Origin: a virus
Taxonomy: Duplodnaviria > Caudoviricetes
DNA length: 64,000 nt
Reading direction: 5' to 3' (one strand)
Virus record (IMG/VR): IMGVR_UViG_3300036770_005357
The notes under the pieces were generated by a model that had not been told where the DNA came from, made no database searches, and was given only the letters and a program-made list of their open reading frames with translations. A program made the translations under genes and the position numbers. How positions within the stretch are numbered: the first letter of the stretch is position 1; each line of letters begins with the position of its first letter. Positions 1,277-12,517 of the stretch are shown in pieces.

Positions 1277-1951
1277 ATGACTTTTTTATTTACTGACAAA
1301 GATTTCGAAAATGCTAAATCACATGACAAGTTGAATCTTAAATGTAAAAATTGTAACGGAACATTTTCTTCTACCAAGAAAGCGATTAATTTTGAATTAA
1401 AACATAAAAGAGGTAGATTACAATTTTGTACAAAAAAATGTTTTGATGATAAACAAACTAATAAAAATCCTGTTAATTGTAAACAATGTAATAAAATAGT
1501 TTTAAAAATACCTAGTCAACTTAAAAGGTCTCCGAATACATTTTGTTCTTCTTCTTGTTCCGCAACTTATAATAATACACATAAAAAATTTGGTACTAGA
1601 AGATCTAAATTAGAAAAATGGTTGGAAGAAAAATTGATTCAGTTACATCCGAATTTAGTTTTTCACTTTAATCGTAAAGACACTATCAACGCCGAATTAG
1701 ACATTTATATACCATCTTTAAAGTTAGCATTCGAGTTAAATGGAATATTTCATTACGAACCAATATATGGAGAAGAAAAACTACATTCAACTCAAAATAA
1801 TGATAAAAGAAAATTCCAAGCGTGTTTAGAACAAAAAATTGAACTTTGTATTATAGATGTTTCCAAAGAAACATATTTTAAAGAACATATATCAAAAAAA
1901 TATTTAGATATTATAAATAATATAATAAATTCTAAATTGTTGAATTCTTAG
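1277..1951 (+). CDS. Free-standing homing endonuclease-like protein (Zn-ribbon repeats + PD-(D/E)xK Vsr/DUF559-like domain), antisense within the tRNA array
   Basis: CxxC..FCxxxC repeats, then ELDIYIPSLKLAFELNGIFHY..NDKRKFQAC. TATTTATA at 1265-1272 just upstream. Confidence 0.75.
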   Translation: MTFLFTDKDFENAKSHDKLNLKCKNCNGTFSSTKKAINFELKHKRGRLQFCTKKCFDDKQTNKNPVNCKQCNKIVLKIPSQLKRSPNTFCSSSCSATYNNTHKKFGTRRSKLEKWLEEKLIQLHPNLVFHFNRKDTINAELDIYIPSLKLAFELNGIFHYEPIYGEEKLHSTQNNDKRKFQACLEQKIELCIIDVSKETYFKEHISKKYLDIINNIINSKLLNS

Positions 1952-2009
1952 TTACAGATATTAACTGTATGCAATAGTCACTGCGTGCAAGTGATTCAAC
2001 TTGACTATC
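1939..2009 (-). ncRNA. HDV-like self-cleaving ribozyme (tRNA-associated, theta-type, with P4)
   Basis: P1 GATAGTC/GACTATT (G1.U), P2 GTTGAATC/GA(A)TTCAAC, P3 ACT/AGT, L3 TGCACGC (U20, G25), P1.1 GC/GC, P4 TACAG/CTGTA, J4/2 ACTAA with catalytic C at 1951. Confidence 0.88.
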
Positions 2010-2084
2010 TTGCAGCTACAGGAGTCGAACCTGCTATCGCCTGGTTATGAGCCAGGAATGATATTTCCGTTTCACTCAGCTGCG
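2010..2084 (-). tRNA. tRNA-Met(CAU), initiator-like (C1:A72), no encoded CCA
   Basis: CGCAGCT/AGCTGCA with C1:A72 mismatch, CCTGG-CTCATAA-CCAGG, GCAGG-TTCGACT-CCTGT, discriminator A at 2010 followed directly by ribozyme G1. Confidence 0.85.
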
Positions 2085-2092
2085 ATTGAAAA

Positions 2093-2104
2093 TTTAAAAG
2101 AACT
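2093..2104 (-). promoter_or_regulatory. boxA-like element upstream of tRNA-Met
   Basis: AGTTCTTTTAAA. Confidence 0.5.
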
Positions 2105-2116
2105 AAAATTGTAAAT

Positions 2117-2281
2117 TGGTGTTGGGTATTTTTATTGAATACTTAATTACCCAACGAATCAAGTATACCATGAACTAACCCCGCAACCAAGAAATTTTTA
2201 AGAGAATTTCCAACTCTGGGAGTTTTTGGTTATATACTCCTCCACCAGTCAGTTTTGAATTTGGATGTCTGACAACCAAAA
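2117..2281 (-). ncRNA. Candidate pseudoknotted ncRNA ending in ACCA (tRNA-Glu/tRNA-Met spacer)
   Basis: 5' domain: TTTTGGTT/AACCAAAA, GTCAG/CTGAC, GGAGT/ACTCC. 3' H-type pseudoknot: ATACTTGAT/ATTAAGTAT + GTTGGGTA/TACCCAAC, then ACCA. Confidence 0.5.
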
Positions 2282-2282
2282 G

Positions 2283-2626: not shown

Positions 2627-2754
2627 TGTAACTTTTGTATCCCTAAAGTTACAGAAAAGGGTCAGACTCACACTGAGGTGATAAGTTGTTTTTTCGTTAA
2701 ACTTATAACAATCGGTTGAGTTTTTAGTTTTCGGTATCGGACTCAACTAACCTT
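2627..2754 (-). ncRNA. Candidate structured 5' leader RNA
   Basis: GGTTAG/CTGACC enclosing TTGAGT/ACTCAA, ATAAGTT/AACTTAT and CTCA/TGAG hairpins, followed by the 9-bp hairpin TGTAACTTT/AAAGTTACA. Confidence 0.4.
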
Positions 2755-2762
2755 ATGTAATC

Positions 2763-2790
2763 ATCTTACCAGAACTTTTCGTTTTGTCAA
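2763..2790 (-). promoter_or_regulatory. sigma70-type promoter for Lys-Glu-Met tRNA transcript
   Basis: TTGACA-16 nt-TAAGAT with extended TGG. Confidence 0.75.
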
Positions 2791-3800: not shown

Positions 3801-3828
3801 ACTATACCATACCTTTATAGAAAGTCAA
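3801..3828 (-). promoter_or_regulatory. sigma70-type early promoter
   Basis: TTGACT-16 nt-TATAGT, extended TGG. Confidence 0.75.
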
Positions 3829-9816: not shown

Positions 9817-9844
9817 ATACTACCATGATTTTTTTATTTGTCAA
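9817..9844 (-). promoter_or_regulatory. sigma70-type early promoter
   Basis: TTGACA-16 nt-TAGTAT, extended TGG. Confidence 0.75.
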
Positions 9845-11542: not shown

Positions 11543-12517
11543 TTATCTTCCCGGTGGTAAACTATTTTCCTTCACTTCAAATATACCATTACCAACGAAA
11601 TCTGTCAAGGATTTATATCCACTATAACTTACAGCTGATGATAGTCCACCCCACAAATCATCAACCAATTCTTGTAGAGACTTAACACTATTACGATCTA
11701 CTTCATACACTTTACCTTCACTATGTCGTCTCACACCACCATACAGTTGTTGTTGTTTGGTACTTGCTCCACCCCAATATGTACCATCGCCGGTTTCCCA
11801 TGTATAGGCTTCTTTAGCTCTAGCAAAGTAACCACCCATCATAACATAATCAGCACCAGCACCAAATGCTTTAGCAGCATAGTTACCGTTCTTTATACCA
11901 CCATCCGCAATTACTTTTAAGTTGTCAATATCAGCTTGATCACTACATTCTATAATTTCTGTAATTTGTCCTCTGTTATAACCAGTAGCATCACTTGTAG
12001 CACAAGCACTACCACCAGCAATACCAACTCTAATCAATACTTCGGGTATATATTTACTAAAATAACTGTATAAATTTATACCATCTGCGGTCATTACATT
12101 GCCGACCATTAAACGATTAACTTTATGTTTATTACATAGCTTATTAATTACATCACGAATTTGTGGTAAATAACCATTGGCACAATCAATCAACCAATTA
12201 TCAACACCTTCACTTGCCAACTCTTTAGCTCTGTCCCAATCATTAAGTCCAATGCTTACAAATAAGTTTTCTTTATTTGGTACAATGGAATAATTAATTA
12301 CAGCATTATCAATATCACAAAACTTATGTTGACATACAGTTAACCCTAGTTTTGTAGCTTCTTTAGCAAATGTTTGTCCTACAACTGCTGCCATAGGACT
12401 AACAATTATGCGATTCAGTTCAAGCGGCACATCCTTACGACTACCGATTTCAGCTGGTTGTGCTATAAGATTTACATCGTTATAGTAAATTGACTTGGTT
12501 TTCTTAAAAACTGCCAT
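11543..12517 (-). CDS. guaC: GMP reductase / IMP dehydrogenase family (no CBS domain)
   Basis: YYNDVNL, IDCANGY, VGNVMT, GIAGGSACAT (catalytic Cys), IADGGIK, VMMGGYFA, SAVSYSG. Confidence 0.8.
   Translation of the reverse strand: MAVFKKTKSIYYNDVNLIAQPAEIGSRKDVPLELNRIIVSPMAAVVGQTFAKEATKLGLTVCQHKFCDIDNAVINYSIVPNKENLFVSIGLNDWDRAKELASEGVDNWLIDCANGYLPQIRDVINKLCNKHKVNRLMVGNVMTADGINLYSYFSKYIPEVLIRVGIAGGSACATSDATGYNRGQITEIIECSDQADIDNLKVIADGGIKNGNYAAKAFGAGADYVMMGGYFARAKEAYTWETGDGTYWGGASTKQQQLYGGVRRHSEGKVYEVDRNSVKSLQELVDDLWGGLSSAVSYSGYKSLTDFVGNGIFEVKENSLPPGR

Follow-up and report, generated by a model that had tools for sequence, protein, structure and literature searches.

Annotation of phage tRNA arrays usually stops at the tRNA genes themselves, and the locus described here raises the question of what a compact conserved cassette without any Rfam match is doing in such an array. 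The stretch of DNA analysed (hereafter the window) is 64,000 nucleotides long and comes from a 173-kb IMG/VR virus record with a GC content of ~30%. Its minus strand carries genes for tRNA-Glu (2283-2357) and tRNA-Met (2011-2083), with an H-type pseudoknot between them, and the array further holds genes for Lys, Ile and Leu tRNAs and an odd Arg-like gene. The first-pass annotation, made from the letters of the window, had likened the pseudoknot, with its ACCA tail, to the tRNA-like structures (TLS) of plant viruses, and had proposed a tRNA mimic or decoy or an exonuclease-blocking 3' end. It had also described the members of the array as ending in NCCA, which stands for five of the six surrounding tRNA or tRNA-like genes and does not hold for tRNA-Met. 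We find that the pseudoknot is real, uncatalogued and conserved in a clade of uncultured freshwater phages, that its unusual feature is an overlap with a promoter-like element, and that a signal for processing or in a leader seems a better description of it than a tRNA mimic.

Structure and conservation of the pseudoknot

When checked against the letters of the window, the layout proposed in the first-pass annotation is exact, 2166-2117 on the minus strand reading ATACTTGAT-TC-GTTGGGTA-ATTAAGTAT-TCAATAAAAA-TACCCAAC-ACCA, and the helix and loop sizes given there are right as well: S1 has 9 bp with one G.U pair, S2 has 8 bp, loop 1 has 2 nt, loop 2 is missing and loop 3 has 10 nt. The 5' arm of S1 (ATACTTGAT, 2158..2166) pairs with the 3' arm ATTAAGTAT (2139..2147), loop 1, which is UC in the window, occupies 2156..2157, and the 5' arm of S2 (GTTGGGTA, 2148..2155) pairs with TACCCAAC (2121..2128), in the window by Watson-Crick pairs throughout. 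Loop 3 (UCAAUAAAAA, 2129..2138) consists of UCAAUA and 4-5 A-rich nucleotides, and the tail ACCA lies at 2117..2120. In the window S2 alone has a folding energy of -10.1 kcal/mol (z -3.0 against shuffles) and S1 alone one of -6.7 kcal/mol (z -3.4).

A neighbouring gene encodes a 340-aa protein whose relatives mostly have no tRNA array nearby, and the whole records of those relatives yielded the first two homologs of window 2255-2091, with 82% identity over 165 nt and 90% over 58 nt. Motif scans gave 28 viral contigs and ~100 metagenome contigs, mostly from freshwater, and after eight chance matches (L050, L051, L055, L059, L065, L075, L143 and L168) had been taken out, the versions of the module across all contigs came to 75 distinct ones, which are the basis of the conservation counts given below. 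Because each homolog search started from invariant motifs, the family sampled is a narrow one of close relatives. The GenBank phage collection gave matches at the level of tRNAs only and no annotated relative close to the window, the exact tRNA-Glu pattern had no match among the viral contigs, no RNA run with the sequence was listed among 24 public runs, and no Rfam family matched 2084-2282 at E values up to 10.

Both helices, on whose conservation in related phages the first-pass annotation had let its proposal depend, are kept and covary in the 75 homologs. S1 is 98.7% and S2 99.0% paired, and over all cells 98.8% are paired, a share that falls to 23-53% once the 3' partners are shifted by 1-3 columns, these being counts over related homologs and hence not independent events. 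Six pairs are altered on both sides, none of 500 shuffles reached the observed pairing measures, and a smaller set of 20 sequences gave the same pairing picture. S2 occurs as GTTGGGTG/CACCCAAC and in three fully compensated variants (GTTGGATG/CATCCAAC, ATCGTCTG/CAGACGAT and GTCGTCTG/CAGACGAC), and in two lineages its sequence has been wholly replaced with complementarity retained. In S1, pair 6 is found as U-A, C-G, U.G and a few mismatches, pair 7 as U-A, G-C, G.U and U.G, and pair 8 as G.U, G-C and A-U. The cells that are not Watson-Crick comprise 60 G.U and only 5 A.C, from which it follows that the pairing has been selected on RNA of the tRNA strand and not as a palindrome in DNA. The pseudoknot is thus a real folded RNA, which its conservation puts far beyond chance.

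The loops are constrained as well. Loop 1 is 2-3 nt long in all 75 variants and is UU in 68 of them; a U stands directly 5' of S2 in 71/75, and G is the first base of S2 in 71/75. Loop 3 begins with UCAAUA in 74 of the 75 variants and with UCACUA in the remaining one; together with the preceding U this makes UUCAAUA, which resembles a T-loop by its sequence. Two other pairings were considered and rejected. A helix GCGGGGU/ACUCUGU suggested by RNAalifold contains three G.U pairs, is broken in the window and in L033 and is weaker than S1, and the long-range pairing UGGUG/CACCA from the single-sequence fold is ruled out by a tail that is not conserved.

The tail is indeed where the family departs from the tRNA-like end described in the first-pass annotation, for CCA at 0-1 nt from S2 is present in only ~15 of the 75 variants, spread over several lineages (those of L022, L096, L115 and L150 have it at the tail register), and the majority have ACAAUUUUU in its place. 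ACCA is accordingly a feature of the window and of a minority of its relatives, not of the family. With a TLS of the TYMV type the element has in common that the 3'-most strand pairs into a hairpin loop and is followed by a single-stranded tail, and that a short loop 1 (2 nt in the window) lies 5' of the acceptor-like stem. It differs in being located inside a precursor in the tRNA arrays of DNA phages, whereas a TLS stands at the genome 3' end, in a coaxial S2/S1 stack of 17-18 bp rather than the 12 of a tRNA arm, in its variable CCA, in having no analogues of the anticodon and T arms, and in a 5' arm that overlaps a promoter -10 region. No anticodon, D or T arm and no further arm of any kind is present within 2084-2282, ARAGORN called no tRNA there, and the Rfam tRNA model (RF00005), its clan and the tRNA-like models had no match at E values up to 10. 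The likeness to plant viruses therefore stands for the topology of the acceptor-arm pseudoknot, which is common to both, but membership among the TLS fails because the defining features (a conserved CCA, a 12-bp stack and the other arms) are missing.

A promoter-like element and its cassette

In every homolog the pseudoknot is preceded on its 5' side by AAAAAACTTC-TTGGTT-GCGGGGTTAG-N5-TGGTATACT, elements which we read as an A-tract, a weak -35, a spacer of exactly 17 nt and an extended -10. In the window this promoter-like element extends over 2162..2200 on the minus strand, with the A-tract at 2195-2199, TTGGTT at 2185-2190, TG at 2169-2170 and TATACT at 2162-2167. The 29 columns from TTGGTT to TATACT contain no indel in the 75 variants, though the spacer block varies. 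By their sequence and invariant 17-nt spacing, TTGGTT and TGgTATACT are promoter-like and form a putative sigma-70 extended -10 site, which a simple promoter scan did not call because the -35 matches at only 3/6 positions. All 25 real matches from a search anchored on the 3' half alone carry the promoter-like part, and that search gave no pseudoknot without it. The same -10 region, CATGGTATAnT, is found at promoter-like sites of the phage at 1206, 3828, 9844 and 11608.

Promoter-like sites elsewhere on the minus strand (1179-1206, 2763-2790, 2917-2944, 3801-3828, 9817-9844 and 11580-11608) share this -10 style, the common form being TTGAC(A/T)-N16/17-(A)TGGTAnnnT, an extended -10 whose TG is followed by G, and most of those in the tRNA region are followed by the boxA-like motif AGTTCTTT. 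The 173-kb record contains the sequence TTGGTTGCGGGG a single time, and the idea that it is a repeated promoter box or activator site was dropped, its near matches being equal in number to the control count.

Promoter DNA and pseudoknot RNA use the same bases in this cassette. Bases 2-6 of the hexamer TATACT make up the first five bases of the S1 5' arm, and the overlapping promoter has its predicted +1 at G2155, with which S2 begins. These outer five bases of the 5' arm are invariant and their partners shift to G.U only, a pattern that fits a double constraint, by the -10 in DNA and by pairing in RNA, while pairs 6-9 of the arm covary with 2139-2147. Since the 5' arm of S1 doubles as the -10 region, RNA started at the overlapping promoter cannot form S1, and the helix can form only on RNA that enters from upstream.

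Such RNA is to be expected. Between tRNA-Glu and the cassette lies a folded RNA domain of three hairpins (2201..2282, minus strand): hairpin A (2269-2273/2248-2252), for which the relatives have at least eight stem sequences that are unrelated yet complementary; hairpin B (2236-2240/2219-2223), of the form GGAGG.../...CCUCC with a variable insert; and hairpin C (2214-2217/2201-2204). A simple scan found no terminator-like site ahead of the cassette on the minus strand. As the upstream hairpins covary and no terminator separates them from the cassette, read-through RNA with the 5' arm of S1 is expected, which would explain the selection on S1. Natural deletions (L034, L048, L058 and L032) have lost the upstream hairpins and kept everything from the A-tract onward, so the cassette is an autonomous unit. 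Hairpin C, too, may form a small H-type pseudoknot: at 2191-2217 on the minus strand AGAG/CUCU and GAAAU/AUUUC can pair, with an A-rich loop 3 that is the A-tract of the promoter-like site, and the one compensated change, to GAAGU/ACUUC in relatives, is thin evidence for it. The upstream domain is duplicated in L022, and in L049 and L072 it has its own promoter, or a promoter and a boxA-like motif, directly ahead of hairpin A. A pairing of TTGGTT with the loop AACCAA of hairpin B was rejected, as it is absent in variants with a GAAA loop.

On its other side the pseudoknot is followed by a boxA-like motif (AGTTCTTTTAA, 2094..2104 on the minus strand), which in all homologs seen begins 12-17 nt past S2 and reads GTTCTTT, in a few GCTCTTT or GTTATTT, with the general form GTTCTTT(A/T)A; we take it to be akin to the boxA of rrn operons on the basis of the E. 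coli and B. subtilis consensus. The gene next after the cassette is that for tRNA-Met (CAT) at 2011..2083, which starts 33 nt past the pseudoknot, the latter sitting within a precursor. The cassette as a whole is thus ~100 nt long and of fixed order: A-tract, TTGGTT, 17-nt spacer, TGgTATACT, pseudoknot, boxA-like GTTCTTT and, nearly always, a tRNA(CAT) gene. The boxA-like motif is a constant companion of the pseudoknot and tRNA(CAT) a nearly constant one; the upstream domain is not. An intrinsic terminator was also considered for the structure and rejected, there being no terminator-like site on this strand, a U run that begins only 3-4 nt past S2 and a loop of 19-20 nt.

The tRNA(CAT) genes that follow the cassette are of at least five very different forms (L021:1665-1745, L022, L092, L070 and L166), all with a terminal CCA and a T-rich trailer; several are non-canonical and were not called by ARAGORN, one example being AGCTGGCGGCAGGTTA...TGGCTCATAACCA...CCA. 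In L110 and L156 a tRNA-Met without CCA is followed by GATAGTCAAAGTTGAAACACTTGCACGTAGTGACTATTG, a ribozyme-like sequence that also follows the tRNA-Met of the window (1939-2010).

A proposed acceptor-arm-like processing signal

The reading that we prefer, with a probability of about 35% and a mechanism that is mostly inferred, is that the pseudoknot serves in RNA processing in the manner of an acceptor arm, probably with RNase P making a cut in loop 1 at U|G. The read-through precursor would be polycistronic, comprising tRNA-Glu, the upstream folded domain and the cassette. In it the coaxial stack of S2 on S1, with the single-stranded tail at its 3' end, would direct a cut in loop 1 at U|G, in the window between 2156 and 2155 (the same step that separates the base before the predicted start from the start itself). 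The cut would free the upstream RNA and leave a leader that begins with the S2 hairpin, and transcripts from the internal promoter would begin at the same G. Because cut and internal promoter would share this 5' G, both routes would give one leader, composed of a 5'-terminal S2 hairpin, boxA and pre-tRNA(CAT). A U at -1 and a G at +1 are the usual context of bacterial RNase P and of transcription starts alike. That the enzyme accepts such a shape has been reported: provided that an H-type pseudoknot carries a 3' RCCA, bacterial RNase P cleaves it in loop 1, and whether a natural pseudoknot substrate exists in vivo was left as an open question (PMC12710915). Like those substrates, the phage element has a single-stranded loop 1 immediately 5' of the tail-bearing stem; as to the 3' RCCA that the cleavage required (PMC12710915), the window has ACCA, a minority of its relatives have the motif as well, and most are without it.

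Several points count against the processing reading. The published cleavage required an RCCA, which most homologs do not have; the stack, at 17-18 bp, exceeds the 12 bp found in a tRNA arm; and a transcription start would account for U-1/G+1 just as well. Cutting the leader would moreover bring no obvious benefit, since RNase P cuts again at the tRNA itself. Against the promoter part speak the -35, which matches at 3/6 positions, and the invariant GCGGGGTTAG within the spacer, for which a promoter does not account. A stronger form of the proposal, in which the same nine bases serve as the promoter -10 in DNA and as the pseudoknot arm that directs an RNase P cut at the promoter's own start base in RNA, is put forward as a speculative one. 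If such dual coding were true, two routes of RNA synthesis would converge on one leader, and bacterial RNase P would have in the element a pseudoknot substrate that occurs naturally in vivo; the processing model on its own would provide a natural test case for RNase P on pseudoknots and would have a single tRNA type (CAT; initiator or elongator Met, or Ile2-like) expressed independently of its neighbours.

The tRNA cluster of T4 is a familiar point of comparison, as it holds the small stable RNAs RNAC and RNAD. Like them, the phage cassette encodes a folded RNA that is not a tRNA, lies amid phage tRNA genes, is presumably processed together with them and has a function that is not known; it differs in being a conserved leader unit tied to one tRNA type and not a free-standing RNA gene.

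Alternative readings

Foremost among the alternatives, and doubtful in our estimate, is that the pseudoknot is the boxB-like part of an antitermination leader of the rrn style, with the GTTCTTT motif as its boxA, which would recruit Nus factors or a phage protein, or work directly on RNA polymerase in the manner of put RNA, so that transcription of the stable-RNA genes resists Rho and pausing. With rrn leaders (promoter, boxB, boxA) and nut sites of the lambda type the cassette has in common a promoter-proximal structure, a boxA-like motif of the GYUCUUUAA type within ~15 nt and stable-RNA genes; it differs in having a pseudoknot as its structure, one half of it 5' of the predicted start, in that it serves single tRNA genes in a phage, and in that Nus binding is putative. 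The array repeats the order of promoter-like site, structure, GTTCTTTAA and RNA gene at 2944, 2790 and 1206, and the invariant UCAAUA of loop 3 would suit contact with a protein or the polymerase. The second of these leaders (2713-2790, minus strand) has TTGACA-N16-TGgTAAGAT as its promoter-like site (2790-2763) and after it a similar, S2-like hairpin, GTTGAGT/ACTCAAC with a 19-nt loop, which is conserved in relatives (L091, L094, L100, L132, L163 and L022). A pseudoknot was also sought in this paralogous leader, at 2745-2713, and rejected, as the possible S1 has only 3-6 bp and no compensation; the hairpin alone is supported. Against this reading, boxA-like leaders other than that of the cassette do without a pseudoknot, and S1, which needs bases 5' of the predicted start, would be absent from the RNA of the overlapping promoter. 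The boxA, finally, is a putative one, assigned by sequence likeness. If antitermination were the right model, the pseudoknot would be a new boxB-type structure, and under either this model or processing the motif is a marker for this freshwater phage clade and its very diverse tRNA(CAT) genes.

The exonuclease-blocking 3' end offered in the first-pass annotation stays a live rival, although we hold it to be unlikely. The pseudoknot would here close a small stable RNA of ~165 nt that runs from hairpin A to the pseudoknot (2282-2117); a cut in the AU-rich tail would be followed by trimming back to the pseudoknot, which would shield the 3' end in the way of an acceptor stem. In favour of this, the upstream hairpins are conserved as RNA, the promoters ahead of hairpin A in L049 and L072 would suit a transcription unit of this extent, and the tail AAUUUUU resembles the T-rich trailers after phage tRNAs, the tail of the window itself being ACCA. 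The cassette is nevertheless intact in L034, L048 and L058, where the upstream domain has been lost; the pseudoknot travels with the boxA-like motif and, nearly always, tRNA(CAT), not with that domain, and it would be odd for a stable RNA to have a promoter-like block inside it.

It is quite improbable that the element acts at the level of DNA only, with S1 as an inverted repeat, or operator, around the start site and the S2 hairpin as the sole RNA structure. The arms of S1 do flank the predicted start, at -11..-3 and +10..+18, with roughly two helical turns between them, and the invariance of their outer five positions is what an operator would call for; but a symmetric DNA site would not favour mismatches that are nearly all G.T on this strand (60 as against 5 A.C), and pairs 6-8 pass through A-U, G.U and G-C states.

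Least probable is the main idea of the first-pass annotation, a pseudoknotted minihelix with ACCA that mimics a tRNA or serves as a decoy and is recognised by the CCA-adding enzyme, a synthetase or an anticodon nuclease: the topology of an acceptor-arm pseudoknot, the 7-8 bp stem with N and CCA in the window, the recurrence of CCA at this register in several lineages and the T-loop-like UUCAAUA all favour it, but with ~80% of the variants lacking CCA, a stack too long for a tRNA, the anticodon and D arms missing, no match to a tRNA or TLS model, a position within a precursor 33 nt ahead of a tRNA gene and the overlap of S1 with the promoter, neither a charged mimic nor a nuclease decoy is likely.

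Elsewhere in the window, at 905-945 on the minus strand, a 3' fragment that resembles a T arm and acceptor and ends in CCA (GGGGGTTCGACTCCCTCC ATACCCA CCA) was not called as a tRNA; a tmRNA model matches weakly within it at 916-932, and the fragment may represent either a tRNA that has been truncated or a tRNA-like 3' piece.
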